Part shown: piece by piece, positions 41,987 to 57,254 of the stretch
How positions within the stretch are numbered: position 1 is the first letter of the stretch
Layout of the letters: the number at the start of each line of letters is the position of its first letter
NCBI GenBank assembly: GCA_031441465.1
Contig: JANOEP010000029.1
Coordinates: 1-62,959, forward strand
Direction of reading: 5' to 3'
Source of the DNA: a bacterium
GTDB taxonomy: Bacteria; Krumholzibacteriota; Krumholzibacteriia; LZORAL124-64-63
Length of the DNA: 62,959 nt
The notes under the pieces: generated by a model
Database searches by the model: none
Seen by the model: the letters and a program-made list of their open reading frames with translations, nothing else
What the model was told of the DNA's origin: nothing
Position numbers and translations under genes: made by a program

Positions 41987-42769
41987 ATGTTCAAGAACGA
42001 CCAGCACACGATCCTGATCGCCGGCGACACGCACTTCAAACTGCGGCCCGACCCCGCCGAGGTCCGCCGCCGCGACCTCTTCCTATCCTTCCTCGAGGTG
42101 GCCCGGGGCGCCGACGAACTGGTCCTGCTCGGCGACGTCTTCGATTTCTGGTTCGACTACCCCCACTTCCGACTGCGGGGCTACGAAGAGCTGCTCGCCG
42201 CCCTCGACGGCGTGCGCGACGCCGGCGTCCGGCTGCACTTCGTGGGCGGCAATCACGACATCTGGGCCGCACGCTACCTGCACGAGCGTTACGGCACCTC
42301 GCTGCAGGGGGATCCGTTCACCATGAACGCGGACGGCCTCCGCATCCGGTTCGTCCACGGCGACGGCCTACTCGCCCGCGACTGGATCTACTCGTCGTTC
42401 CGCCGCCTCGTGCGGCAACGCGGCGGCGTCCTCTTCGCGAAATCCCTCCACCCGGAGTTGCTCTACGCCTTCTCGCAGTGGCTGAGCCACACCAGCCGCC
42501 AGGCCTCGCGCGACGAACGCCACCTGATCGAGAAGCGCGCGCGCCGGCATCTGGCCAGCGCGCGCGGCGATTGGGACCTGCTGCTGATCGGGCACGTCCA
42601 CCACGCCTTCCGCATCGCACAGGGTGGACGGGAAATGGCGGCGCTGGGCAGCTGGTTCGCGGGTGAGGCGAGCTACGCGATCGTGCGGGGGGGCCGGTTC
42701 GAGCTGCGCGACTTCGCCGCCGACCCCCGTCCTCCGGTCGGGAACCCTCAATTCGGGATCACTCAGTAA
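41987..42769 (+). CDS. lpxH: UDP-2,3-diacylglucosamine diphosphatase
   Basis: GDTH, LLGDVFDFWFDY, GGNHD, VHGDG, GHVH, LGSW metallophosphoesterase motifs. Confidence 0.88.
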   Translation: MFKNDQHTILIAGDTHFKLRPDPAEVRRRDLFLSFLEVARGADELVLLGDVFDFWFDYPHFRLRGYEELLAALDGVRDAGVRLHFVGGNHDIWAARYLHERYGTSLQGDPFTMNADGLRIRFVHGDGLLARDWIYSSFRRLVRQRGGVLFAKSLHPELLYAFSQWLSHTSRQASRDERHLIEKRARRHLASARGDWDLLLIGHVHHAFRIAQGGREMAALGSWFAGEASYAIVRGGRFELRDFAADPRPPVGNPQFGITQ

Positions 42770-43707
42770 CCGGAACCACCCAACGCCAGTTCCAAGGCGA
42801 AACGGTGCCAGTCGCCCAGGTCGTTGGTGGCCTGCTCGAAGGCGTACCCCAGGGTCAAGGGGCCGCGGGTGAAGCCGGCACCCCAGGTGTAGCCCTGGGA
42901 CTCGTAGTTGATCCGCGTGCCCAGGCGCAGGGCCAGGGCCGGCACCAGCCGGTATTCGCCGCCGACGTGCGCCTTCTCGTTGCCGTCGTTCGGGAACAGG
43001 ACGTCCGCGGCCAGCGTCAGCTTGCCCGAGAAGAAGTCCTGCTGGGGATCGTAGGCCAAGCCCAGCCTGCCGGCCTGCGGCAGGGCGAAGGGCTCCTCGT
43101 TGAGGTTGAGGTCGGGCCCGACGTTGGTGAGCGAAGCGCCGAACCACAAGCCGGGGACCTCGGCGCGATGCGCGATGAACAGGTCGTAGGCCAGCCCCGT
43201 GTCGCCGTACACGTCGATCTCGGTGTGCAGGAGCTTGACGCCGACGCCAACCGCGAAGACCTCGCCGATCATCCGCGCGTAATTGACGCCGAGCGCCACC
43301 TCGTACGGGCGGAACGTGCCCAGCGGCACGCCGACGCCGTCCTCCTCGTAGCGTTCGATCTCGTCGGCATAGAGGCCGGAGAAGATGAAGCCCAGCGTAC
43401 CGTACGGCGTGCGGTGGGCGACGACGGCCGTCTCCTTGTCGAACAGCCCCCACAGCCGCTGGTGCTGGAGCAGCAGGTCCGTGCCTTCCTGCGTGAAGGC
43501 GAGGCGCGCCGGGTTCCAGTACACGGCCGACGCCCCGTCGGCCGAAGCCACGCCGGCACCGCCCATGGCGGCCTCGCGCGCGCCCACGGGGTTGCGCAGG
43601 GACAGGAAGCCCGAGGTCCCCGGGGTTCCGGCGGCGGCGGCTCCCGCGAGCAGCAGGACGGCGAGGAGCGCGGCGTGCGCGCGGCGGCGCGGCGGAGCAG
43701 ACATCAT
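42763..43707 (-). CDS. PorV/PorQ-family outer-membrane beta-barrel
   Basis: Signal peptide then FLSL..PVGAREAAMGGA.VA.ADGASAVYWNPA; C-terminal LG..HRF. Confidence 0.9.
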   Translation of the reverse strand: MMSAPPRRRAHAALLAVLLLAGAAAAGTPGTSGFLSLRNPVGAREAAMGGAGVASADGASAVYWNPARLAFTQEGTDLLLQHQRLWGLFDKETAVVAHRTPYGTLGFIFSGLYADEIERYEEDGVGVPLGTFRPYEVALGVNYARMIGEVFAVGVGVKLLHTEIDVYGDTGLAYDLFIAHRAEVPGLWFGASLTNVGPDLNLNEEPFALPQAGRLGLAYDPQQDFFSGKLTLAADVLFPNDGNEKAHVGGEYRLVPALALRLGTRINYESQGYTWGAGFTRGPLTLGYAFEQATNDLGDWHRFALELALGGSGY

Positions 43708-43765
43708 GTCGATCCTTTCCGGCGCGACCGGCGCGCCCAGACCCGCGGACGGCGACCGCGGCGGC

Positions 43766-46700
43766 TCATCGTGAGACGGCCACCGGCACGACGCTCGTTT
43801 CGGAACGGCCGCTTCCCTCGGCGACCAGTCGGCAGACATACAGACCCGAAGCGAGTTGCGGCAGGTCCAGCCGGACCTCCACGGGTTCGCCCGCGCGGGC
43901 GGCGGTGCTGGCCGCGACCGCCACCACCTCCCCCTCCAGATTGTACAGGAAGACCCGGACACCGCAATCCCGCAAGACGTCGGCGCGCACGCGCAGCACC
44001 GTGCCCGTCAGCGGCGACGGGTAGCAGACGTGGCTGCCGGCGACGAACAGGCCCGTGCCCGTCGGACCGGCGGGGGGCGCCGGGAGCCACGACGAGCCGT
44101 CGGCGCTCCCGCCGTACATCGGCCAGACCGGCACGGCATCCGCGGTGCCGTGCAGGCTCCAGACCGCCAGGCGGGACACTGGCTCGCCGTCGAATCCTCC
44201 GTCCACCGCGACGCCCGCGATCCGCTCGAAGCTGCCGGCGGCGACCAGTTCGAGGCCCGGCGCAGCGTCGAGATCCAGCAGCAAGGGCGTGCCGGCTGCC
44301 GCGCCCGCCCCGGCCAGCGGCCAGCCGGGAATCAGGACGCCATCCTGGCCGTACAGGAACATGCGACCGTCGGCGAGTGTGAAGAGGTACTGCCGGGACG
44401 CGCCGACTTCGAATGCCAATGGCTGCGGTTCTGTCCCGGGGGCGGCGGCCACGGCGCCGGTTGCCGGCCGCTGAGGCCAGCCGACGCGGGGCGCACCCGT
44501 GCTGCCTGTACAGGCGAACGCGCCGTCGCGGGTGCCGTGAGCCAAGTCGGGTCCGAAGGGCGTCGCCACCGCCGCCCCCACCGGCCAGAACACGGGAGCC
44601 TGGAAATCCGGCAGGATCATGGCGCCGCCGTCCTTCGTCGCGACCGCCAGCGCGTACTCGCGATCCACAAAACCGACGAAGTCGGCGCCGACTTCGGGTA
44701 TCTGCCAGATCTGCGGCCTGATCGCGGCCGGCTCCGCCGGCAGGACGCGCACGGGATCGAACCCGCCACCGTCATGCCGGATCACCTGTTCCCACCGCTC
44801 GTCGACCTGGTTGTGCACCAGCAGGACGAGACTCGCCGCGTCGAGGTGCAGCACCGGCGGCGCCACCACGCGGCACTGTTCCTGCGGCAGATCGACGACG
44901 GCGCCACCCGGCCAGACCCGCAGCCGGCTGCGGGCGCCGTCCTCCCAGGTTTCGACAACGACGACATCGGCGGTTCCCACGACGGGTGGCCAATCGCAAC
45001 CCGTCAACGCCAGCGCGAGCCCGTAGCTGACGGGATCCGCATCGCCATCGACGGCTTCGGTGCCGTCCTCGCCGTTGAAGACGAACAGGCCGGTGGGCGC
45101 CGAGAGCACGATCTCCGGCCGGCCGTCGTCATCGACGTCCGCCACCAGCAGCGGTCCCGTCCAGGCGGCCGTCGTGCCGTCGGCGTTGCGTCCGACGGCG
45201 AGCAGGCCGGGCTCGAGGGTGGTCTCGTGGAAGTCCGACAGGTCGCTGCGGAAGGCCAGGACGCGGCCGCCGTCGGCGGCGGTCACGATCTCGAGCGTGC
45301 CGTCGGCGGGCCAGTCCAGATCGGCGGCGATCAGGTGCATGCCGCGCAGGTCGCGGCCCGGCAACTCGCGTACCGCCGCCGGTTCGGCGTCCCCGAGGGA
45401 CTCGCGCGAACAGCTGAACTCCAGCCAGGGCGCGTAGACGATCACGGCCGCTGTGTCGCCGGGCGCCACGTAGGCGGAATCCAGGACGACGTGGCTGAAG
45501 GCGTCCAGCACGATCCCGGTCGGCTGGCCGGCCGCGGTGACGGTCGCCGGCCGTGTGTCCGGCCCGAACCTCGCCGCACCCTCGCCGCGGAAGCTGTCGT
45601 GATCGCCGCCCAGGAACCAGGCGCTCGGCGTGCCGGAATCGAGATCCTGGATGCCGTCGGCCTCCTCGAGGTCCACGGACTTGTGGGCGGGGTCCGCGTT
45701 GTAGAGGTTGCCTTCGGCGCCCGCCGAGGCGCGAATCACCGACTCGTCGATGTGCCAGACGTAGAGCCCGCTGCCGGCGCCCTTGACGCCTGGTGCACGG
45801 GCCTGGTTCTCGCTCATGAAGAAATCGAACTCGCCGCCGTCGAGCCACTCCCGCTGGTCGGTCGCGGGATCGAACCAGCTCGTGGGCGTGCCGTCGAGGG
45901 AATCGGAATCGGCGTCGTAGAAATCGGGGACGCCGTTGCCATTCAGGTCGCCCGGAAACGAGAATTTACGGTTGCCGTCGGGATCCTGCCGGCGGTATTC
46001 GACCAGCCAATACTCCTGGGGCGCGATCTCCACGCGCGCCAGGGTTGAATCCGCGGCCGGATGCTCGGCGGGATACAGCCGCAGGACGCCGCTCGCGTCG
46101 GGGTCCACGCTGTACGGCTCGAGCCAGCCCATGAGCATCTTGTTGAACGCGCAGGGAAGCGCCGGGATGTAGCCCGCGGCCGTGAACAGCCCGTAACCCA
46201 TCAAGCAGAACTCGCCGACGCCTTGGCTGTCCGGTCGGCCGGCGGGCGTGAAGTCGCTCAGCGAGAGCATGCCCAGGCGTAATCCCACTTCGAAGCAGTA
46301 GACGCCGAGCGAGCCGAAATAGCCCAGGAAGCTCCCGATCGGATCCTGGAACTCGTTTTCCGGCAGGATGAGCACGTGGTCGATCAGGGCGAAGCCCCCG
46401 CCGGGCAGCTGATCGTCCGTGAGCAACCCCGGCTCCTGCAGGAGGCCCTCTTCGACGGCGAGCGCGAAGTCCTCGGGTCCCAGATAGCCGCTGTAGATCT
46501 GCTCGGGCGAATCGCCCAGGATGTCGGTCTCCTCGCCGGCGCCGGCGTGGACGATCACCACCGTGTCGTAGCGCGAGAAGTCGACGTCGGCATCCAGCGC
46601 CGCGACGGCGTCGCGCGCCAGCAACACCTTCTGCTCCCCCTCGTCGGGGTGGTTCCCGTACCAGGCCATGGGGGACGCCAGGTTGGCCACCTCGGGGTGG

Positions 46701-47221
46701 ACCCGGTAGCGGAACTCGAAGCGCTCGCCGCTGGCCACACGGAAATAGGACCGCACGTCGGCGAACTGATGAGCGAAATAAAGCGAGTCGTGGGCCGTGT
46801 AGTAGGGATCGCTCTGTCGTGGCAGCGGAAAGCCCTCCAGTTCATGCCCGTAGAAGAGGCTGTCGGCGAAGTCGCACATCAGGATCGCAGCCACCAAGCT
46901 GTCCGGGGCCGCCCGGCCGGCCAGGCGTGCGGCCTGCAGGGCCGGCGAGCCGTCGCGGGCCAGCCGCGCCACCTTGTCGCCGAGAAGTCGATCCACACCG
47001 GACCGGCCGGCCATCCGCGCCGCCGCGGCCTCGCGTGACGGAACGGCGGTGGGCAGGGGTCCTGCATCTGCTGCTCGAGCCGGCGACACCGACAAGCTGC
47101 CGGCCCCGACAAAGACGTGCCATGCCAGGCAACCGCACAGCAACGCCCGGGACACACGGCCCGAGGGGCCGGCGGTGGCGAGGCGGTCGGCGGCCTGGTT
47201 CATGTCGTTCGGCTTTCGCAT
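43766..47221 (-). CDS. Secreted M6 (immune inhibitor A)-like metallopeptidase-fold protein with FG-GAP repeats and T9SS-type CTD; zinc motif degenerate
   Basis: IVHAGAGEE, VGEFCLMGYG, KMLMGW, EYWLVEYR, SGLYVWHIDE, VDLEEADG; ADLD/ADVDDDG repeats; YPSP..LASGLY. Start set downstream of the promoter (47221 or 47203). Confidence 0.88.
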   Translation of the reverse strand: MRKPNDMNQAADRLATAGPSGRVSRALLCGCLAWHVFVGAGSLSVSPARAADAGPLPTAVPSREAAAARMAGRSGVDRLLGDKVARLARDGSPALQAARLAGRAAPDSLVAAILMCDFADSLFYGHELEGFPLPRQSDPYYTAHDSLYFAHQFADVRSYFRVASGERFEFRYRVHPEVANLASPMAWYGNHPDEGEQKVLLARDAVAALDADVDFSRYDTVVIVHAGAGEETDILGDSPEQIYSGYLGPEDFALAVEEGLLQEPGLLTDDQLPGGGFALIDHVLILPENEFQDPIGSFLGYFGSLGVYCFEVGLRLGMLSLSDFTPAGRPDSQGVGEFCLMGYGLFTAAGYIPALPCAFNKMLMGWLEPYSVDPDASGVLRLYPAEHPAADSTLARVEIAPQEYWLVEYRRQDPDGNRKFSFPGDLNGNGVPDFYDADSDSLDGTPTSWFDPATDQREWLDGGEFDFFMSENQARAPGVKGAGSGLYVWHIDESVIRASAGAEGNLYNADPAHKSVDLEEADGIQDLDSGTPSAWFLGGDHDSFRGEGAARFGPDTRPATVTAAGQPTGIVLDAFSHVVLDSAYVAPGDTAAVIVYAPWLEFSCSRESLGDAEPAAVRELPGRDLRGMHLIAADLDWPADGTLEIVTAADGGRVLAFRSDLSDFHETTLEPGLLAVGRNADGTTAAWTGPLLVADVDDDGRPEIVLSAPTGLFVFNGEDGTEAVDGDADPVSYGLALALTGCDWPPVVGTADVVVVETWEDGARSRLRVWPGGAVVDLPQEQCRVVAPPVLHLDAASLVLLVHNQVDERWEQVIRHDGGGFDPVRVLPAEPAAIRPQIWQIPEVGADFVGFVDREYALAVATKDGGAMILPDFQAPVFWPVGAAVATPFGPDLAHGTRDGAFACTGSTGAPRVGWPQRPATGAVAAAPGTEPQPLAFEVGASRQYLFTLADGRMFLYGQDGVLIPGWPLAGAGAAAGTPLLLDLDAAPGLELVAAGSFERIAGVAVDGGFDGEPVSRLAVWSLHGTADAVPVWPMYGGSADGSSWLPAPPAGPTGTGLFVAGSHVCYPSPLTGTVLRVRADVLRDCGVRVFLYNLEGEVVAVAASTAARAGEPVEVRLDLPQLASGLYVCRLVAEGSGRSETSVVPVAVSR

Positions 47222-47263
47222 GCGGTTTCGCTCCGGGAGCCGGCATCGCCGGCGGAAACGACG

Positions 47264-47292
47264 AGTATAGGTGCGCGTCCCACGATCGTCAA
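47264..47292 (-). promoter_or_regulatory. sigma70-type promoter for the M6-like/PorV pair
   Basis: TTGACG-17 nt-TATACT. Confidence 0.7.
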
Positions 47293-47296
47293 CGAA

Positions 47297-47324
47297 CGGC
47301 CCCGCCGAAAACACGGCGGGGCCG
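47297..47324 (-). terminator. Terminator-like hairpin
   Basis: Perfect 11-bp stem CGGCCCCGCCG-6 nt-CGGCGGGGCCG; weak U tract (UUCGUU). Confidence 0.6.
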
Positions 47325-47510
47325 GGGATCGAACGCCGCCACCCCTGATTGGCATCGTCTTCACCCCTGCCCCGCCGTTCGACGTCGGTGATCATCGGCT
47401 GACCGGCTCGGCTTCCCGTTCCCCGACAGGTGCCAACCTCTTCAAGGATCAGGCCCTCGCCGGTCCGCCAACACGATGGGGGGATCAGATCACCTCCGAC
47501 ATCATGGGGC
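47325..47510 (-). ncRNA. Candidate structured RNA element in the 3' region of the DUF4384 gene
   Basis: Nested pairings GCCCC/GGGGC, GAUGUCGG/CCGACGUC, GUGAUC/GAUCAC, GACCGGC/GCCGGUC around an unpaired UCCCCCCAUCGU. Confidence 0.4.
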
Positions 47511-47511
47511 G

Positions 47512-49293
47512 TCAGCGCCCCTTGCTCCGAGACTTGCTCGATTGCCCGGACTGGCCCGACGATCCGCTGCGCGAGCCGTTGTCGCCGCCGCTCTGCTGCG
47601 TGCCAGACCGAGTGTCTTGGCTTTCGCGAGTGGAACGCGACTGCACGCTGCCCGAGTCGCGGGAACCCTCATTGCTCTTGCCCGCCGGGCGCTCCTTGAC
47701 CGCCGGTGGCGGCTCGGACCGGCCCCCGCTCGATCGCGGCGTGACGGCGGAGGCCGGCCTATCGGGTGCCTTGTGCTCCTCGCTGCGGCCGCCGCTCCAC
47801 AGGCGCGGTCCCTTCGTGCGGGGCTCGACCGGGCGAACCGTTCCCGGGCCGGAGTCGCCCTGATCGCGACGCGGCACCGGCCGGACCGCCCGGTCGCCGC
47901 TTTCGCCACCCTTGCCGCGCTCCGGAGGCGCCGGCCTGACTTCACCGGCCGTGCGGCCGCTCCGCCCGGCCTGGGGCCGCACTTGGGTGCCGGTCGTGCC
48001 GCCCGTCGACGCTCCTGGCCTGGTCACAGCTTCCCCGCGGCTGCCCGCCGTGACGCCGGAACGGCCCGGCACACGGATCCCGGGGGTGCGATCTTCACGA
48101 GTCGGAGGTGCGAAGGTCTGGGACGAGCGCTGCACCTGCGGGACGTCGCGGAATCGAGTCCGCTCCTGGTCCCGGTCGCCATCGCGCACCGCCGCCGAGC
48201 GGGAGGCCATCCGGTCGCTCACCTCGCGGGCGGGCCGCGGATTCTTCACCAGACCGGCAGGGTGATGCTGGCTGTCCTCGCCCTCGCCCCGCTTCATGCG
48301 CTGGTCCTTGCCGAGCGGCCGGTATCGGCGCTCGCCGTCCTTGTACCGCGTCCAGACGTCGCCCCGCCCGCGGGGGGAATAGTTCCAGACGTAGCAGTCG
48401 TGATCCCAGCCCCAGCCATGGTGCTCGGGCCACGAATACCAGGGACGGTACCAGTAGTTGATCCAGGGATTCGAGGTCCAGGGATCGACGTAGTAGTAGA
48501 CGGGGTAGTAGTAGGCCGGGTAGTAGCCGTAACGAACGTACCAGTCGTTGTCCCAGCGGTAATCGTGGTGGATGGTGACCGCGCAGGTGTCCCGGTACGG
48601 CTCGTAGCTCTGCCCGCCGTCGTGGCACTGGTTGCAGAGGTAACGCGGGTGGTCGACGCGCCGGTGGACGTACCAGCTGATGTAGTTCGTGGCGACATAG
48701 TCCTCGGGGTTCTCCAGGCCCGTGACGGCGAAATTCACCTCGTTCATCGCCAGGAAGGGGTCGCCGGCGACGTAGTACGCGAAGTCCCGCGCGCGCTCCG
48801 ACTCGTGATGGAAGTCGACTTCGAGATCGCGCAGATCGAACGGGTAGGCGGAGACGACAGCCTCGACGTACTCGACGCCTTCGTCGTCGGCCGCGAGGAT
48901 CCGCGGCGAACCCGGACCCGGCAGGTTGTAGGTATGGGTGCCGAACACGAAACCGTCGTCCAGTCGGCTCCGCGGCCAGAGAATCGAAACCAGGCCGTCG
49001 GTGTCGATACGGTAGACGACGACGTACGCGTCCTGGTTCGTCTCGAAGTGGACGCGCACCGACTCGCCGCGCTTGTAGACCTCGTCCTGCTGACGGTCGT
49101 GCCAGACGTTCACTCGCAGCGGTTGCTGGTCGTACCCCTGCCAGCCGTCGGCGACCGCCGGTTGCTGAGCGCGGGCCGTGGCGAAGCCGAGTGCGAGCGC
49201 CAACGCCCCGAGCAGCCAGCCGACCGCCAAACGATGGGCGCGGTCCTGTCGCGCCGCCGTCCGCACGCCCGTGTTCTTTGTCTTGTAAGTCAT
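47512..49293 (-). CDS. DUF4384-domain secreted protein with CxxCH motif, Tyr/Trp-rich segment and disordered basic tail
   Basis: Hydrophobic signal; VY.RGE.VRVHF..NQDAYVVVYRIDTDG.V.ILWP (DUF4384-like); CNQCH; R/G/S-rich tail. Confidence 0.8.
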   Translation of the reverse strand: MTYKTKNTGVRTAARQDRAHRLAVGWLLGALALALGFATARAQQPAVADGWQGYDQQPLRVNVWHDRQQDEVYKRGESVRVHFETNQDAYVVVYRIDTDGLVSILWPRSRLDDGFVFGTHTYNLPGPGSPRILAADDEGVEYVEAVVSAYPFDLRDLEVDFHHESERARDFAYYVAGDPFLAMNEVNFAVTGLENPEDYVATNYISWYVHRRVDHPRYLCNQCHDGGQSYEPYRDTCAVTIHHDYRWDNDWYVRYGYYPAYYYPVYYYVDPWTSNPWINYWYRPWYSWPEHHGWGWDHDCYVWNYSPRGRGDVWTRYKDGERRYRPLGKDQRMKRGEGEDSQHHPAGLVKNPRPAREVSDRMASRSAAVRDGDRDQERTRFRDVPQVQRSSQTFAPPTREDRTPGIRVPGRSGVTAGSRGEAVTRPGASTGGTTGTQVRPQAGRSGRTAGEVRPAPPERGKGGESGDRAVRPVPRRDQGDSGPGTVRPVEPRTKGPRLWSGGRSEEHKAPDRPASAVTPRSSGGRSEPPPAVKERPAGKSNEGSRDSGSVQSRSTRESQDTRSGTQQSGGDNGSRSGSSGQSGQSSKSRSKGR

Positions 49294-49321
49294 GACCGGA
49301 CCTCCTTTCGGGTCAGCGCCA

Positions 49322-50230
49322 CTAGAAACGGATCAGTTCGCTGCGGGGCGCACCGGTGACACGCTCGTCCGCGACGACCTTCAGTTCCGGATTTCCCTCG
49401 TCGAACTGGTAAGCCCAGTCGATCTCGACCATCCCCGCCGAGATCGCGTAGACGTAGAACTTCGCGTAATGGACGTCGTTCTCGGGATCCACGACGATCG
49501 CCACGGCGTAGGTATGGCCCTCGATCAATTCCGCGACGCCGATGGCGGAGTACCCGGACGTCGGGGCCTCGTCGACCGCGGCGAAGGCAACGGTCCCGAG
49601 ATCCTGCAGGTAGACGACGCCGAACCTCGCCGAGTAGACGAAGGGCACGCCCCCGACGAAGGCCAGGTAGACGTCGGCGGTCGGGTCGTCCCATTCCATC
49701 CGCCCGTTGTCCAAACGGCTGAAATCGAAGCCGCTGCGCTCGGGGTGATCCCCGTAACGGTCATAGAGCAGGAGTTCGTAGCCTTCGGGCCGCGGCGTGT
49801 CATCGACCGTCTCCCAACTCAAGGAGCTTTCGTTCCCGCTCGTGTCGTAGGAAAGCACCGCATAGTAATAGGTCTGCCCGTCCACGAGGTCTTCGTCGTC
49901 GAACCAGTGGAGTAGGCTGACCTCGTCGAAATTCTCGTCCCAGGCGACATCGCCCAACCAGTGGTAGCGGCCGTCCAGGGGGTCGTTCCCGTCATGCCGG
50001 TAGACGGCATAGCCGGCGAGATCGGACTGGTCCAGGTCGTTCCAGTAGACGGAGACGACACCCTCGCCGGTGACCGTGAAAACTCCGGTCGGAACCGCCG
50101 GGGCCTGAGTGTCGACCGGGTCGTCGTCGCAGCCCGGCAGAGGAACCAGGAGCGCCAGGACGAGAACTGTCGCGATGGCCTGCATCGCCACGTTCAAGTG
50201 ATGTCGATTCTCGGTAAGTATCCGGTTCAT
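49322..50230 (-). CDS. Lipoprotein with a fibronectin type III-like domain
   Basis: GGAGG RBS; LLVPLPGC lipobox-like; PAVPTG....GEG.VSVYW..DLAGYAVYR..YYYAV.SYD..GNES. Confidence 0.85.
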   Translation of the reverse strand: MNRILTENRHHLNVAMQAIATVLVLALLVPLPGCDDDPVDTQAPAVPTGVFTVTGEGVVSVYWNDLDQSDLAGYAVYRHDGNDPLDGRYHWLGDVAWDENFDEVSLLHWFDDEDLVDGQTYYYAVLSYDTSGNESSLSWETVDDTPRPEGYELLLYDRYGDHPERSGFDFSRLDNGRMEWDDPTADVYLAFVGGVPFVYSARFGVVYLQDLGTVAFAAVDEAPTSGYSAIGVAELIEGHTYAVAIVVDPENDVHYAKFYVYAISAGMVEIDWAYQFDEGNPELKVVADERVTGAPRSELIRF

Positions 50231-50280
50231 GGCCCCACCTCCCTCGAGCCGGCGTCACGCCGACCCGCAGGCTCTCCAAG

Positions 50281-50295
50281 GCAGGAGGCATGCCA
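50281..50295 (-). promoter_or_regulatory. sigma54 (-24/-12) promoter for the lipoprotein-DUF4384 operon
   Basis: TGGCATGCCTCCTGC (GG-N10-GC) ~50 nt upstream of ATG 50230, with an AT-rich tract just upstream. Confidence 0.7.
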
Positions 50296-50411
50296 CGCTA
50301 CTTCCCGACGGCCGATTCCGGCGTTTTGAAATGTATTTTACAATTAGGCATGCAGTTACAGAGACGAAAGAAGAATCTGGGCGAGGATGGGTTGCTGAGC
50401 GGGAGCGGCTT

Positions 50412-51640
50412 TAGTGTCCCCCGCAAAGTCCATAGCATCCCCAAAAGGAGACGGGTTCTGGCTGTGAAATTGTCCCTGGCGCGGTCGTTGCCGCGCCAGG
50501 GACATGACCACCAACACCCCCGGCTGGCAACCGCCCCACTGCCCCAACCCGGACTGCCAGTTCCACCAACAGGTTACCCCCGCCTGGCGCTTCAAACGCA
50601 AGGGCTACTTCTCCCGCCGCTGCACACCCACCCGTATCCAGCGGTTCACATGCCTCTACTGCGGACGCAACTTCAGCACACAGACCTTCTCCACCTCCTA
50701 CTGGCAGAAACGCCCCGAGTTGATGTCCCGGCTGTTCATGCTGCTGGTCGGCTCGATGTGCAACCGACAAGCGGCCAGAGCCGATCGGGTTGCCCCGGCA
50801 ACCATCCAGCACCAGGCCTCCCGCCTCGGACGTCATTGCCTGCTGTTCCACGCCAAGCAGATACAGCAGCTCGGCCCGACCCCCGAGGTCGTCGTCGACG
50901 GCTTCGAGACCTTCGAGTGGAGCCAGTACTTCCCCTTCCACCACAACCTGGCCGTCGACCCTGAGACCGGCTACTTCCTCTACCACACCGACAGCCCGCT
51001 GCGCCGCAAGGGGCGCATGACCGACCACCAGAAGCAGCGCCGAGCCGAACTGGAAGCGACCCTGGGCCGCCCGGACCCGAAGGCCGTCCGCAAGGGCATG
51101 GCGGAGCTGTTCGAGGTGGTGACCCAGGGTGCCGGCAAGGTGGTGGTCCGTAGCGATGATCACCCGGCGTACCCGCGAGCCATGGCACACCTGGAATGTG
51201 AGGTCGAGCACCGGATCACCTCGGGGAAGGAGCACCGCGACCAGCACAACTCGCTGTGGGAGGTGAACCTGCTGATCCGCCACGGCACAGCGGCGCACAG
51301 GCGCGAGACGATCGCCTAGGCGAAGCGGCGGCAGGCGTCGGCGGAGAAGCTGGCGGTGCTGCAGGTGTGGCGCAACAACATCAAGCGGCGGTGGGAGAAC
51401 GGGCATTCGGTGACGCCGGCGATGCTGCGGGGGGCGACAGGCCGGGTGTTGACGGTGCGGGACGTGTTGTGCGAGCGGCTGTTCCGCACGCGGATCGCAC
51501 TGCCGCCGAGCTGGAATCGGTACTACGAGCGCAGCGTGGAGACGACGGCGCTGGCGGTGAACCGGCGGCACCGGCTGAAGTACGCGTTCTGAGGAGACGG
51601 CAGAGGCGAGGCCGCCGGGCCGCGCACCCGTCAGGGACAA
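50412..51640 (+). mobile_element. IS1-family-like insertion sequence, ends approximate
   Basis: Contains the transposase gene; only short inverted ends visible (TGTCCC at ~50415, GGGACA at ~51634); no clear target-site duplication. Confidence 0.6.
50504..51592 (+). pseudogene. IS1-like DDE transposase with a premature TAG at 51317-51319
   Basis: Zinc finger CPNPDC..RFTCLYC; VVVDGFETF, VRSDD..AY, RRETIA; the same frame resumes after TAG (AKRRQ...LKYAF). Confidence 0.8.
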
Positions 51641-51649
51641 TCATGTGGC

Positions 51650-51975
51650 CAGAACCAAAGAGAAAAGAGCCAGCGGTCCTGGAGTAGACCGAGGATCCCG
51701 AGTCTCGCCTCTGCGGGATCTGCTGGCTCTTTCTCTGGTCTTTCGGAGTGGGCCGGGTGATCGGAGGGGACCTGAACCACGTTTTTCATCACCCGTTGTC
51801 CGGCTGGTTCGGAACCCCACATTCCTTGCCGACCACCACGGGCCTAGTCGTTGAAAAACACTCCCAGCTCGCCGGTAGGCGCTGAAAGCTGTGGATCCAG
51901 TTCCCCTTCCGAAGTTTCGGCTTCACTGACGGGTTGGTCCAGGTTCATCCCTGCAACTGGTCCCACCCACGTTCA
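51650..51975 (-). ncRNA. Candidate sigma54-dependent structured sRNA (~320 nt)
   Basis: Starts at the predicted +1 of the sigma54 promoter. Stems GUUUUUCA/UGAAAAAC and CCCGU/ACGGG (51780-51860). Ends in the long hairpin AGAGCCAGC..GCUGGCUCU plus UUUCUCUUU. No convincing ORF. Confidence 0.6.
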
Positions 51976-51986
51976 GTTCGATGATT

Positions 51987-52001
51987 GCAGTCGACATGCC
52001 A
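51987..52001 (-). promoter_or_regulatory. sigma54 (-24/-12) promoter
   Basis: TGGCATGTCGACTGC followed by A, close to the TGGCACG-N4-TTGCW consensus. Confidence 0.75.
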
Positions 52002-52019
52002 GATGGCCGCAGGCACTTC

Positions 52020-52180
52020 CTTGTGATTAACTTGCTGAATTTTAATAGGTTATAATTATTTATGAATCCGGCTCCTCATCCGGAGGCCTCACGGGAGGCA
52101 AGTCCGTTGCCCACTCATCGCGTCGAATTCCTATTCCGTTGTAAAATAAGTTGTTACGATGGCAATAACTTTAATAGCGA
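52020..52180. promoter_or_regulatory. AT-rich IHF-like and enhancer (UAS)-like zone
   Basis: TAACTTGCTGAAT (IHF-like); imperfect palindromes GTAA-N9-TTAC and GTTGTTAC-N4-GCAATAAC. Confidence 0.45.
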
Positions 52181-52233
52181 CGATGCTGGAAAGAACATCC
52201 ATTGACACACCGGCAGCATCGAGCCGCCGGACA

Positions 52234-55200
52234 TCAGTCGACTTCGGGATCGTAGATCCGAATTTTCTTCAAGAGATTGGGATAGCTGATGCCGAGCAAG
52301 CGTGAGGCCGCCGCCTTGTTGCCGCCGGTCGCCACCAGCGCGCGCGCGATCTCACGGGCTTCGACGGCCCCGAGCACCTCGCGCAGGGTCGACGGGTTGC
52401 GGGCCGCCACGGTATCGCCGTTGGCGGGGACGATCTCCGCCGGGAGGTGGTCCGGGCGCAGCATCGGTTCGCCGTGGGCCAGGACGATGGCGCGGTTGAT
52501 GGCCTTGACCAGTTCCCGCACGTTTCCGGGCCAGGCATGACACGACAGGGCGTCCATGAACGCCGCCGTGTAGCCGGGCGGCGTGATGCCGCGCGCCGCG
52601 GCGTAGCGGGCGATGAAGTGCGGGACGAGCAGGCCGATGTCCTCGCGACGTTCGCGCAGCGGCGGCACCGAGAGCGGAAAATCCAGCAGCCGGTAGTAAA
52701 GATCTTCGAGGAACTCGCCCCGCGCGACCTTGCCCTTCAGGTCGCTCTTGGTCGCGCAGATGATGCGCACGTCGATGACCTGGTCGACGTTGGCGCCGAC
52801 GGGCCGGATGGTCATCGAATCCAGGAACAGCAGGATCTTGCCCTGCATCCCGAGCGGGAGCTTGCCGATCTCGTCGAGGAACACCGTGCCGCCGGCGGCT
52901 TCGGCCAGGAGGCCTTTCTTGTCGCCGTAGGCGCCCGTGAAACTGCCCCTGACGTGGCCGAACAACTCGCTCTCGAGAAGCGCCTCGGGAATGGCGGCGC
53001 AATTGATGGCGAGGTACTTCCTGCCGGCACGACCGCTGAGGTCGTGGATCGCCCGCGCGAACAGACCCTTGCCGGTGCCGGTCTCGCCTTGAAGCAGCAC
53101 GAGCAGGTCGCTGGCGGCGACCTTGCGAACCACATCCAGGAGTCGGAGCATGTCCGGGTGACCGGTGATGATGCCGGACAGAGCACTCTCCCGCTCCGGG
53201 GTCGCCAACGCGGCGGCAGCGGGTCGGTCGCGTTCAAGTTCGGCCACGTTCATCGCGAGGAAGCCTGACGCCGTGGAGAGGAACTCCAACGCCGGCCTGA
53301 AGACAGCCGTGCCGGGATTGCCCGGGCAACCCGAGAGGTAGAGCAGGCCGTAGAGCTTGTCGGGCAGGGCGATCGGCACGAACAAACTGATGTCCATGGC
53401 GCAGGGCAGCCCGGCGAGGATCTTCGCGACGGCTGTGCCTGGCTCGGGCCGCGAAATCAGGCGGGGTGACGGCGAGCCGCCGTAGAGCTTGTCGGTGAAC
53501 CAGGTGGTGAGTTTCCGGGCGACCGCCGCCGGCACGCCGCGGCTGGTCACGACCTGATCTGAGACCGGGTAGTCGGCCAACGGCGTCAGAGCAGCGAACC
53601 CTTCCTTGGCGCCCGTACGAGCGAGGGCCGCTTCCAGCAGTCCCCGCAGGGCGGCATGGACCGCCTCGGTACGATCACCGGCGCCGCGGATCGCGAGCCG
53701 TTGCGGATCCAAGAGAGGCTGTTCGCCCACCAAGGCTCGTTCCAGCCGGGTACGCAGTGCCGTGGCTTGCCCCGCCAGTTCGGGCGCGTCGAGCGCCGCC
53801 AGGACCCGGTCCAGCTCACCCAGGGCGATCAGGACCTCGTCGTGTTCACCGAGCAGCAACAGGACCTCGGCGAAACCCTGCAACAAGCGGCCGTAGAGGT
53901 GCTCGTCCTCGCGCACCGCGTCGCACTCGACCGCCTCGCCGAGCGAGCGGCGCAGGGCGACCAGTTCCTCACGGGGAAAGACACCGGCGCCTTCCCCGAG
54001 GTGGGCCAGGACGGCGCGCGCGGCTTGGACCGGCAACTGCTGGGTTCGGAACGTGCGTACTGCGAGCCTGAAGTGCTCGGAGCCGCCCTTCCCGTCGCCG
54101 AGGCGTGTCAGCGCCTGGCCGAGAACCTGATGGCAGAAGCCGATTTCGAACAGCTCACCGCAGGTGAGGCAAATCTGCAGCGCCGCCTCGGCGCTCGCGA
54201 GGGCTTCGCGCCAGTTCTGCTGACCGGCCCGGGCCTCGGCGATCCGGCGCAGCAACTCGCCCTCGAGATCGGTGGACTTGCCGATCCCGCGAGCCTTCGC
54301 CAGCCCCAGCTCGTAATTGTAGAGCGCGCGGTCCCACTCGCCGCGGTGTGCCTGGATGTCGCCCATGTATTCGTCGGCGATCGCGGCCTCGCGCGAGTAC
54401 CCGGCCTGTTCGGCGAGGTGCTGGCCCTCCATCACCAGTTCCTCGGCCCGCAACAGGCGGCCCTCGAGCAGATCGAGCTGGCCGAGCGCGAGGCAGGCCT
54501 TGGTCCGACGATCGAGGTCGCCGAGGCTCGTCGCCAGGCGCAGGCACTTCTCGAAGCTGGCGCGGGCCTCGCCGCGCCGTTCGGACTTGCGCAGGACGAT
54601 GCCTTCGTTCAGGTGGAGGCGCGCCATCAGATGGGTGGCGCCGTGCGCCGCGGCCAGTTCGAGGGACCGGTGCTGGAAGTCGAGGGCGCGGTGCCAGCGG
54701 CAGGCGTTCTTCTGCAGTAGAGCCAAGTTGTTGTAGAGGATGGCCATGCCGAGGTCGTCGCCGACCCGGCGGAAGGTCGCCAGCGCGTCGGTATAGAACT
54801 CCTCCGCCTTGTCCAGGCGGCCGAGTCGATGGTGGCAAACCCCCATCGTCACCTGGAGGTTGGCGACTTCGGTGTGATTGTCGGTGACGGCCAGGACGGC
54901 GAAGGCCCGCTTGCAAAGCAGCAGCGCATCCGCGTAGGCGCCCCGTTGCACACGGAGGCTTGCTTCGCGGCCCAGCAAGGGGGCGGCGAGCAGGCGTCTT
55001 GCCGAATCGGGCAACCCGACCGCATCCTGCACCTGCGACTGCGCCCGGTTCAGGAGTTCCTGAGCCAGGGTGAGGTCGCCCAGATTCAGGGCCGCGTCGA
55101 CGGTCTTGCGCTGGAGGGCGACGGCGTGCTCGAGATCGAGACCGTCGAGCGCGTGGCCGTCGAGGATGCGCTGATAGTATTCGAGGGCTGAAGAGTAGGC

Positions 55201-55323
55201 ACTGGCTTCGAAGTGGAGATCGCCGATCTCTTCCAAACGCACGAAATCGCCCCGTACCGGACTCCGGTGGGTGCCTGACTCGTGGCGGCGTTCCTCGCGC
55301 CGATGTCTGGAATCACGATCCAT
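52234..55323 (-). CDS. sigma54 enhancer-binding protein with a large N-terminal TPR region, GAF-like segment, AAA+ domain and Fis-type HTH
   Basis: Multiple TPRs (MGVCHHRLGRLDKAEEFY, NNLALL); GETGTGKG, INCAAIPE.LLESELFGH.RGSFTGA, FLDEIG, WPGNVREL, GNKAAASRLLGISY; no receiver domain. Confidence 0.95.
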   Translation of the reverse strand: MDRDSRHRREERRHESGTHRSPVRGDFVRLEEIGDLHFEASAYSSALEYYQRILDGHALDGLDLEHAVALQRKTVDAALNLGDLTLAQELLNRAQSQVQDAVGLPDSARRLLAAPLLGREASLRVQRGAYADALLLCKRAFAVLAVTDNHTEVANLQVTMGVCHHRLGRLDKAEEFYTDALATFRRVGDDLGMAILYNNLALLQKNACRWHRALDFQHRSLELAAAHGATHLMARLHLNEGIVLRKSERRGEARASFEKCLRLATSLGDLDRRTKACLALGQLDLLEGRLLRAEELVMEGQHLAEQAGYSREAAIADEYMGDIQAHRGEWDRALYNYELGLAKARGIGKSTDLEGELLRRIAEARAGQQNWREALASAEAALQICLTCGELFEIGFCHQVLGQALTRLGDGKGGSEHFRLAVRTFRTQQLPVQAARAVLAHLGEGAGVFPREELVALRRSLGEAVECDAVREDEHLYGRLLQGFAEVLLLLGEHDEVLIALGELDRVLAALDAPELAGQATALRTRLERALVGEQPLLDPQRLAIRGAGDRTEAVHAALRGLLEAALARTGAKEGFAALTPLADYPVSDQVVTSRGVPAAVARKLTTWFTDKLYGGSPSPRLISRPEPGTAVAKILAGLPCAMDISLFVPIALPDKLYGLLYLSGCPGNPGTAVFRPALEFLSTASGFLAMNVAELERDRPAAAALATPERESALSGIITGHPDMLRLLDVVRKVAASDLLVLLQGETGTGKGLFARAIHDLSGRAGRKYLAINCAAIPEALLESELFGHVRGSFTGAYGDKKGLLAEAAGGTVFLDEIGKLPLGMQGKILLFLDSMTIRPVGANVDQVIDVRIICATKSDLKGKVARGEFLEDLYYRLLDFPLSVPPLRERREDIGLLVPHFIARYAAARGITPPGYTAAFMDALSCHAWPGNVRELVKAINRAIVLAHGEPMLRPDHLPAEIVPANGDTVAARNPSTLREVLGAVEAREIARALVATGGNKAAASRLLGISYPNLLKKIRIYDPEVD

Positions 55324-55438
55324 CGAATGAGTCCCCTGGCGAGAAAGTGGGCTATTCGAACTGGACTCCCCTCACCCCTTCACTGCACACGCCTGCGTGG
55401 TGCGGCGCCGGTCGCTCTCCAGGCGATCGGCGTCGGTT

Positions 55439-55744
55439 CTACTGGACGACGGTCGCGAACACCGCCAACAACCAAGAGGCCAATGCGGCCGGCGACAGCA
55501 CCGATCCGGGCGGCGTGACGATCGGCGACCCGGTGAGGACGCTGTTGCCCCGATTCCCCGTGATGGCGTCGTCGGGATCGCCATACTGGTGGACCAGGTC
55601 GTTCGCAGGTGGCGTGGTGGGTGCTTCCAACACGACGACGGTCCCGGAAGTCGACACCATCGTCCCGGACTGAGATGTCGCCTGGGCCGACAAGGCCGAG
55701 ACGAGGATCAGCAACAACACCACCGAGTGCATGGCCCTTTTCAT
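55439..55744 (-). CDS. 101-aa secreted peptide/propeptide
   Basis: GGAGAG RBS; Sec signal MKRAMHSVVLLLILVSALSAQA; acidic core YGDPDDAITG; hydrophobic C-terminus LASWLLAVF; own promoter. Confidence 0.75.
   Translation of the reverse strand: MKRAMHSVVLLLILVSALSAQATSQSGTMVSTSGTVVVLEAPTTPPANDLVHQYGDPDDAITGNRGNSVLTGSPIVTPPGSVLSPAALASWLLAVFATVVQ

Positions 55745-55862: not shown

Positions 55863-57254
<1,392 letters not shown>

Follow-up and report, generated by a model that had tools for sequence, protein, structure and literature searches.

A conserved structured RNA gene with a sigma-54-type promoter next to an enhancer-binding protein gene in Krumholzibacteriota, and its predicted pairing with the activator's translation start

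What is encoded in the gap that follows an enhancer-binding protein (EBP) gene on contig JANOEP010000029.1 of the Krumholzibacteriota assembly GCA_031441465.1, and what might its product act upon? The window, i.e. the whole stretch of 62,959 nt analysed here, had earlier been examined in a sequence-only reading that proposed an unannotated, sigma-54-promoted structured RNA of about 320 nt directly downstream of the EBP gene, and promoter, fold, covariation and synteny were all found by the present analysis. In all probability the element is a real, independent gene for a structured RNA, the transcription of which we infer. Its role is best read as that of a trans-acting RNA which would feed back on the translation of its own activator, a reading that we consider reasonably probable on the basis of the loop complementarities described below.

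On the minus strand of the window, a gene for an EBP with tetratricopeptide repeats (TPR) is followed by an AT-rich gap, a −24/−12 promoter and the RNA of ∼319 nt. The TPR-EBP (52234..55323, minus; 1029 aa) combines N-terminal TPR with a sigma-54 AAA+ domain and HTH_8, as indicated by Pfam scores of 3.9e-59 for Sigma54_activat, 8.4e-20 for TPR_12 and 3.7e-08 for HTH_8. The promoter, TGGCATgtcgaCTGCA (52001..51986, minus), carries its GG at 52000-51999 and its GC at 51988-51987 and places the transcription start near 51975, which yields the very 5′ sequence quoted in the sequence-only reading. With a strict pattern, a GG-N10-GC promoter was detected just 5′ of the conserved RNA start in 51/55 non-redundant loci, the four loci without a match being L067, L085, L080 and L081. 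By count alone the pattern is not significant in one window (three matches versus 1.37 expected), and the locus counts as real chiefly because a block of conservation runs from the promoter to the terminator, rather than on account of the promoter pattern alone. A candidate enhancer site, TGGGCAAcggacTTGCCtccc (GGCAA-N5-TTGCC; 52113..52093, minus), lies ∼120 nt upstream of the putative start and may bind the activator; its conservation in an alignment of eight species is partial and limited to the genus. AT-rich DNA (∼52020..52075) separates this site from the promoter, with the GC content going down to 0.445 at 52000-52199. The genome carries a single rpoN gene; for the sigma-54 activator domain, 24 matches exceed the cut-off, 18 of them at E ≤1e-30, including two that are halves of one split gene. 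Transcription of the RNA gene is very likely sigma-54 dependent, and the TPR-domain EBP encoded just upstream is most likely the protein that would activate the promoter. An orthologous EBP gene was found 260-330 nt upstream of the RNA, on the same strand, in 30/30 and 30/31 loci, the sole miss being a contig end; of the 55 non-redundant loci, 54 have the EBP gene upstream. The sequence-only reading had suggested a search downstream of orthologous activators.

The RNA (∼51975..51657, minus; both ends predicted) is about 319 nt long, compared with the ∼320 nt supposed earlier; the start coordinate given then, 51650, reaches 7 nt into a neighbouring insertion sequence (IS). Its covariance model match spans 51760..51969 with 188-226 bits. 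The predicted fold has an energy of −146.6 kcal/mol (z −4.55), which none of 100 shuffled sequences equalled; the opposite strand of the same region gave z −3.5. The analysis treated the 5′ 210 nt apart from the 3′ hairpin. At the 5′ end, hairpin P1 (51968..51931, minus) exposes the invariant loop GUUGCAGGGA (51957..51948), and nine of its ten pairs change on both sides. The loop contains UUGCA and was considered as a mimic of the sigma-54 promoter fork junction; this was rejected in view of the covariation of the P1 stem, in which a −24-like sequence is lacking. The central domain (51913..51760, minus) is closed by the long-range helix P2, formed by 51913..51891 with 51780..51760. Within it, the P3 arm (51890..51860, minus) bears the loop ACCGGC (51876..51871) and is followed by the invariant junction strand UUUUCAAC (51859..51847, minus) and by the P4-P5 arm (51844..51791, minus), whose 7-nt loop reads (G/U)GUGGGG, with GUGGGG at 51820..51815. 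A variable linker without conservation (51759..51737, minus) leads to a Y-shaped intrinsic terminator of 80 nt (51736..51657, minus) with an A-rich/U-rich outer stem, the U-rich tail of which meets the IS. The invariant letters of the RNA sit in loops and junctions, including the junction strands UUUUCAAC and GAAA.

Several of these elements had been recognized before, in part under another description. The small CGCC-UACC-GGCG hairpin is present at ∼51880..51869, but only its ACCGGC loop is conserved; the stem domain placed at 51780-51860 does contain structure, namely the P4-P5 arm plus the junction; and the C-rich stretch UCCCCUCC (51770..51763), once taken for a free linker resembling an anti-Shine-Dalgarno sequence, is the 3′ strand of helix P2. 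Likewise, the terminal hairpin with a U-rich tail exists, but is 80 nt rather than ∼95 nt in length and is Y-shaped. Arm 1 of this terminator bears the invariant loop GGCGAGA (51709..51703) and shows changes on both sides in 7/8 pairs, whereas arm 2 is variable, and GGCGAG was found downstream of the RNA core in 53/55 loci. Covariation of the outer stem was seen by eye (AGAGCC/GGCUCU, GGAACC/GGUUCC and GGUCGCC/GGCGACC), while RNAalifold recovered arm 1 alone from the 3′ hairpins as aligned with MAFFT, where the outer-stem registers were misaligned. A terminator scanner made no call at this structure because its loop limit is 8 nt.

By DNA search, five of the six further genomes in the genus proved to carry the RNA stretch, with 86-88% identity, and weaker matches came from three additional genera; an exact-pattern scan of genome contigs matched only seven genomes already known to carry the RNA. 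In the eight-species alignment, conservation extends from the promoter to the U-rich tail, with single-base indels inside, and neither the gap between the EBP stop codon and the promoter nor the downstream flank is conserved. RNAalifold on a MAFFT alignment of eight sequences, i.e. one not fitted to any model, gave 89 pairs, and in 22 of these the changes were compensatory. When built on the first 210 nt, a covariance model (R1) had a single full-length match in each of 37/91 genomes of the family, and R2, a model rebuilt from 30 of the R1-found sequences, found exactly one match in 79/91 genomes and 26/28 genera; among the 55 high-quality genomes of the family (≥90% completeness, ≤5% contamination), 53 carry a match. 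Two candidate second copies (L011 and L012) proved to be chance matches inside coding DNA. In the alignment of the 30 sequences, 88.8% of the cells were paired (shuffles, 68.9%; slid partners, 31.6-51.4%), and changes on both sides were present in 52/60 base pairs, values reached by none of 500 shuffles; the alignment behind the 52/60 count was itself fitted to the covariance model. Matches of the model to the antisense strand reached only 20-26 bits, versus 188-209 bits in sense.

Non-coding nature of the RNA is supported by the behaviour of its reading frames. Even among members of the genus, sense open reading frames (ORFs) of at least 25 aa vary in where they lie, in frame and in length, and 3/24 homologues have none. 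Of the two weak ORFs listed earlier, that of 63 aa at 51631..51822 was retrieved as described, and the other appears as 51844..51966, with 40 aa from a GTG; differing as they do in frame and length, the ORFs do not bear out a conserved coding signal. As regards novelty, which the sequence-only reading had linked to the lack of an Rfam hit, cmscan of window positions 50000-54000 against Rfam 15 at E up to 10 gave no match within the RNA and three weak ones outside 51657-51975, all far below the gathering scores; eight loci of other families gave no Rfam matches at E up to 1, and a literature search found no description of the RNA. Contigs of relatives assembled from three RNA runs of two studies cover 51658-51911 with at least 82% likeness at a depth of 2-6, and those of a fourth run, of uncertain type, reach 51658-51737 only.

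A possible target was found at the translation start of the EBP itself. This region is predicted to form a hairpin (55360..55323, minus) in which Box 1, GCCCAC (55352..55347), pairs with the Shine-Dalgarno (SD) sequence GGGGA (55336..55332) ahead of the ATG (55323), and which presents Box 2, UCUCGCC (55344..55338, minus), in the loop between Box 1 and the SD; the window thus reads GCCCAC-UU-UCUCGCC-A-GGGGA (55352..55332). The same order, CCC(A/G)CC, a few bases, CUCGCC and (A/G)GGGGA, is present in the window and in 20/20 relatives from 10 genera. The G residues of the SD are paired with the C residues of Box 1 in 15-21 of the 21 sequences by standard C-G pairs and in 20-21 when G-U is included, and the closing pairs covary. 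Both the individual folds and the consensus structure place CUCGCC in the loop, and this word complements the invariant terminator-arm loop GGCGAG at every position; Box 1, rich in C, is in turn complementary to GGUGGG of the P5 loop, one position being U-A or U.G. Loop-by-loop duplex energies ranged from −10.7 to −17.2 kcal/mol. As a control, the six-letter complements of 16 words from the invariant single-stranded motifs were searched in 21 EBP 5′ regions: CTCGCC was present in 21/21, TCTCGC in 12/21 and CCCACC in 9/21, and the remaining words in 0-6/21. Box 2 together with the SD makes up the word CTCGCCRGGGGA, of which the 3.49-Mb genome has two occurrences, the EBP start being one of them. 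The second genomic site, CTCGCCGGGGGA, was considered as another target and discarded, as the stretch is open in several frames and neither a Box 1 nor a nearby start was seen there.

Taken together, these complementarities suggest the following circuit. Active EBP would allow sigma-54 RNA polymerase to transcribe the RNA, transcription would stop at the RNA's own Y-shaped terminator, and the RNA would then act in trans on the mRNA of the same EBP. The EBP start would be closed by default, with its SD GGGGA paired to CCCACC or CCCGCC and its loop showing CUCGCC; the terminator-arm loop GGCGAG(A) may kiss this CUCGCC loop over 6-8 bp, and the P5 loop GGUGGGG, which imitates the SD, may pair with the C-rich box. 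The EBP would thereby govern the RNA, and the RNA the translation of the EBP; the same EBP system probably also fires a second sigma-54 promoter, that of a surface-protein/PorV operon further downstream. We regard pairing of the RNA with the EBP mRNA as fairly likely, and grade in the same way the proposal that the RNA is the post-transcriptional arm of the EBP circuit. As to the direction of the effect, a default-closed start region and an SD-like P5 loop lead us to favour, tentatively and slightly, activation by freeing of the closed SD (anti-antisense) over repression by occlusion of the ribosome site, which is a possible but more doubtful outcome.

Comparison with other families shows how widely the parts of this circuit are distributed. 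The order contains only the family of the window genome (f1), and the class and phylum samples contain the same nine families, f1-f9. In these samples R2 matched in 59/66 genomes of f1, 9/10 of f6 and, marginally, 2/9 of f8, and in none of f2, f3, f4, f5, f7 and f9; with filters off, R2 gave only weak local matches in other families (E 0.00076-0.03). The gene downstream of the RNA, here called gene X, is present in 140/151 genomes of the class sample, and a full-length TPR-EBP gene was located 800-1100 nt upstream of it in 11 of 16 sampled loci (f2, f3, f4, f7, f8 and f9). All 11 of these EBP-gene X gaps contain a GTGGGGT motif, and pattern-level sigma-54 promoters were found in nine of them, two in 7 gaps and one in 2, with none in the other 2. 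The locus is therefore older than the R2-detectable RNA, since the layout of gene X and EBP extends to other families; the GUGGGG hairpin alone is shared with f2-f4 and f7-f9. In the RNAs of f4 and f8 (L091, L092, L093, L103 and L105, taken from the first promoter to about +330), a different 5′ hairpin was noted, whose C-rich loop (CAUCCCGUGCG) roughly complements the G-rich P1 loop of f1, and the GUGGGG hairpin lies inside the terminator stem.

A free-standing, Y-shaped small RNA (sRNA) of ∼100 nt was furthermore found in the gap in f3 (23/28), f7 (4/4), f9 (1/1) and f8 (2/9). Its features are a sigma-70-like promoter, a terminator and two invariant loops, GGAAUGGCGAGAUCC and the anti-SD-like GGACAUCCCCUCCGGUG, and it has no match in Rfam; examples situated between the sigma-54 RNA and gene X are L094:3804-3941, L095:1192-1329, L102:1170-1307, L104:1225-1362 and L106:1084-1221. 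The f1 genomes carry this GGCGAG hairpin as part of the sigma-54 RNA, within its terminator. The CUCGCC box is present where the RNA of the locus has the GGCGAG hairpin (f1 21/21, f6 5/5, f2 1/1) and absent where the locus lacks it (f4 0/3, f8 0/2). It is conceivable, if still speculative, that throughout the phylum a sigma-54 RNA opens the self-closed ribosome-binding site of its activator's mRNA by means of a kissing loop and an SD-mimic loop, thus providing positive feedback for a surface programme of the type IX secretion system (T9SS) type, with the kissing hairpin as a movable module that is fused in f1, f6 and f2 and free, as a sigma-70-type sRNA, in f3, f7 and f9.

A number of observations weigh against feedback on the EBP mRNA or against parts of that proposal. 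Two EBP genes neighbour the RNA promoter, the second encoding an NtrC-type response regulator (55863..57254) upstream of the TPR-EBP gene, and either protein could drive it. The contigs from the RNA libraries also extend beyond promoter and terminator and are thus uninformative as to a discrete transcript, and the related genomes compared are non-independent samples. In f3 genomes with the free-standing sRNA the EBP start reads UUCGCC, which fits by wobble only (2/2), and in f7, f9 and one f8 genome the sRNA has the GGCGAGA loop yet no CUCGCC box was found at the EBP start (0/3). Whole-molecule RNAduplex against the EBP start gave energies within the range of shuffled targets, a comparison that is uninformative in GC-rich sequence. 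Loops and boxes are near-invariant, so that covariation in trans is scarce, and at one loop-box position G-C is replaced by U.U in the window's genus, which is non-compensatory. For the invariant motifs GUUGCAGGGA, ACCGGC and UUUUCAAC, neither the EBP 5′ region nor the gene X leader offered a partner. Finally, no member of the Hfq family was detected in the genome, whose completeness is 96.8%.

The same three invariant motifs without an RNA partner lend some weight to another explanation, namely that the G-rich loops serve as decoys which tie up an RNA-binding protein, as CsrB/RsmZ do for CsrA and CrcZ for Hfq/Crc; the EBP mRNA would then match because it is the natural target of that protein. 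The size and multi-hairpin build recall CrcZ and CsrB, csrA is present in the genome, and the P1 loop GCAGGGAUG is reminiscent of the CsrA-site consensus. A precedent is provided by CrcZ, a sequestering RNA that depends on sigma-N, CbrB and IHF (PMC6296734). However, the RNA contains only ∼11 GGA in 329 nt, versus roughly eight expected, and hence no array of repeated sites; its four invariant loops are all different instead of repeating a single motif; and they complement the mRNA boxes, whereas a decoy would copy the binding site. Moreover, csrA adjoins fliW (G000:C46:10058-10794), an arrangement in which a protein, not an RNA, antagonizes CsrA. A CsrA-type sponge is unlikely, and sequestration of a protein in general also appears unlikely to be the function of the RNA. 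Apart from the RNA, the csrA-fliW adjacency points to CsrA control of the protein-antagonist type in this organism, which is probably flagellated.

Position, rather than build, is what suggests a cis-acting role, in which the RNA would be a leader or insulator of the gene X operon, with its terminator as a regulated attenuator or with its transcription modulating the enhancer of the second promoter. Gene X (49322..50230, minus; ∼300 aa, lipoprotein-like) is the first gene of an operon at 42763..50230 and lies downstream of the RNA on the same strand in 28/30 and 31/31 loci; in 59/61 loci the RNA is thus placed between the EBP gene and gene X, and the end of the terminator is within ∼50 nt of a conserved enhancer-like element. 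That element, a hairpin or palindrome of the form CGUCUCC-UUUU-GGGGAUG...GGGACAC (50453..50414, minus), is situated ∼130 nt upstream of the second promoter and is likely to be the enhancer of the gene X promoter, 5′ of which GTCCCC/GGGGAC words are enriched; the RNA promoter has a different motif upstream. Yet gene X has a sigma-54 promoter of its own, by pattern in 54/55 loci and also in the window, where TGGCATgcctcCTGCC (50295..50280, minus) lies beyond the IS. Further transcription units intervene between the RNA and gene X in other families, and complements of the RNA loops occurred in the gene X leader in only 1-10/55 loci, within the shuffle range and without enrichment. The SD of gene X, GGAGGUGGGG, was also considered as a copy of the P5 loop, which holds within the window's genus only.

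The window itself offers a natural interruption of this arrangement. An IS element of 1203 bp (50454..51656) with imperfect terminal inverted repeats of 25 nt is inserted so as to separate the RNA terminator from the likely gene X enhancer, and its plus-strand ORF (50504..51592), convergent to the RNA, is broken by an in-frame TAG at 51317-51319. The insertion at this locus is confined to the window genome and absent from relatives carrying the RNA. Within its own genome the IS has 18 matches, several at contig ends, including an intact copy of the ORF of 365 aa (L051:1558-2655, minus); the protein had no Pfam match and only weak IS1/ISL3-like similarity at its N-terminus, below cut-offs. The RNA has nevertheless remained intact with 1.2 kb of IS DNA between it and gene X, and we consider a cis-acting leader or insulator improbable.

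Equally improbable, in our view, is a structured RNA with some other function, such as a ligand or protein sensor, a scaffold or a catalyst, for which the match between loops and mRNA would be secondary. The multi-helix junction with its invariant strands (UUUUCAAC, GAAA) and loops is reminiscent of folds of riboswitch size, and part of the invariant sequence is unexplained by pairing. On the other hand, no Rfam family matched, and the architecture varies across the phylum, with the GUGGGG hairpin alone being shared, unlike a fixed catalytic or ligand-binding core. That the region is no RNA gene at all, but encodes a small protein or forms the end of the adjacent IS, is very improbable, for although ORFs of 40 and 63 aa exist and the IS abuts the 3′ end, the ORFs differ among homologues and are crossed by single-base indels, all relatives carry the RNA without the IS, and copies of the IS elsewhere in the genome are without the RNA, which also excludes the mobile-element end that had been named earlier as the finding to speak against an RNA gene. 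Feedback of a trans-acting RNA on the translation of its activator is accordingly retained as the preferred reading.

The remainder of the gene X operon indicates what else the EBP system may control. Gene X is followed by the gene for a DUF4384 protein (47512..49293, minus), that for a 1209-aa M6-like protein (43766..47395, minus), which matched the NCBIfam model of T9SS-dependent M6-like inactivated metalloproteases at E 6e-51, below the cut-off, and that for a barrel protein of the PorV/PorQ family (42763..43962, minus), which scored above its cut-off. The genes after gene X look like a sigma-54-controlled surface module of the T9SS type that is conserved across the phylum. On the other side of the RNA, an ORF of 101 aa with a signal-peptide-like N-terminus (55439..55744, minus) is located between the genes of the NtrC-type EBP and the TPR-EBP.

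These results add a well-supported structured RNA family to a phylum known only from metagenomes, and its covariance model would annotate a gap of 0.8-1.1 kb that is 'empty' in these genomes. They tie sigma-54 to an outer-membrane operon of the T9SS type, and an association of sigma-54 with the cell exterior is of long standing (PMC3162934). The regulatory hairpin, either free-standing or fused into the terminator of another RNA, provides a case of modular evolution. The predicted circuit from activator to RNA to translation of the activator is concrete and can be tested by mutation; if true, it would extend the logic of Qrr and LuxO to an unrelated RNA, to a bacterium in which Hfq was not found and to the recognition of a structured start by two loops.

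Among known systems, the closest parallel is that of qrr1, which adjoins luxO. The sequence-only reading had already likened the layout to this pair, an EBP gene beside a sigma-54 RNA, and the analogy has become closer than first supposed because loops of the RNA complement the translation start of the activator itself. Qrr sRNAs, made under LuxO and sigma-54, act on luxO through sequestration, repressing its translation, and also activate aphA (PMC3730234). Both systems would share the dependence on sigma-54 and an EBP and the feedback of the RNA on the mRNA of its activator, both of which are predicted in the present case. In contrast, Qrr sRNAs are ∼100 nt long, Hfq dependent and often multicopy, whereas the window RNA is ∼319 nt long and single copy, with a covarying multi-helix core, in a genome where Hfq was not found; two separate apical loops of the window RNA are predicted to meet a structured start region, and the two RNAs have no similarity in sequence or structure, judging by the absence of Rfam matches at E up to 10.

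A similar arrangement is known from Pseudomonas, where crcZ lies just downstream of cbrB. CrcZ/CrcY resemble the window RNA in having a sigma-N promoter, which for the window RNA would likewise be controlled by an EBP, and a length of a few hundred nucleotides. CrcZ sequesters Crc/Hfq on repeated A-rich motifs, whereas the window RNA has no repeated motif and no Rfam match. For the CrcZ promoter, direct activation by the EBP CbrB together with IHF is reported (PMC6296734).

Other sigma-54- and EBP-dependent sRNAs, some of them encoded beside their regulator, are Pxr with PxrR/Nla19 in Myxococcus and GlmY/GlmZ with GlrR in Enterobacteria; their sequences and folds are unrelated to those of the window RNA (no Rfam match), and their targets differ. 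With regard to mechanism, anti-antisense activators (DsrA, RprA and ArcZ on rpoS, Qrr on aphA) and kissing-loop RNAs (CopA-CopT, RNAI-RNAII) likewise involve a self-closed mRNA start or a loop-complementary RNA; these systems have been proven experimentally, whereas pairing and its direction are predictions for the window RNA. Its kind, a sigma-54-dependent regulatory RNA located beside its activator and with feedback, is therefore known; what is new is the RNA family, its size and fold, the proposed recognition of a structured start site by two loops, and the hairpin module that is found either fused or free.

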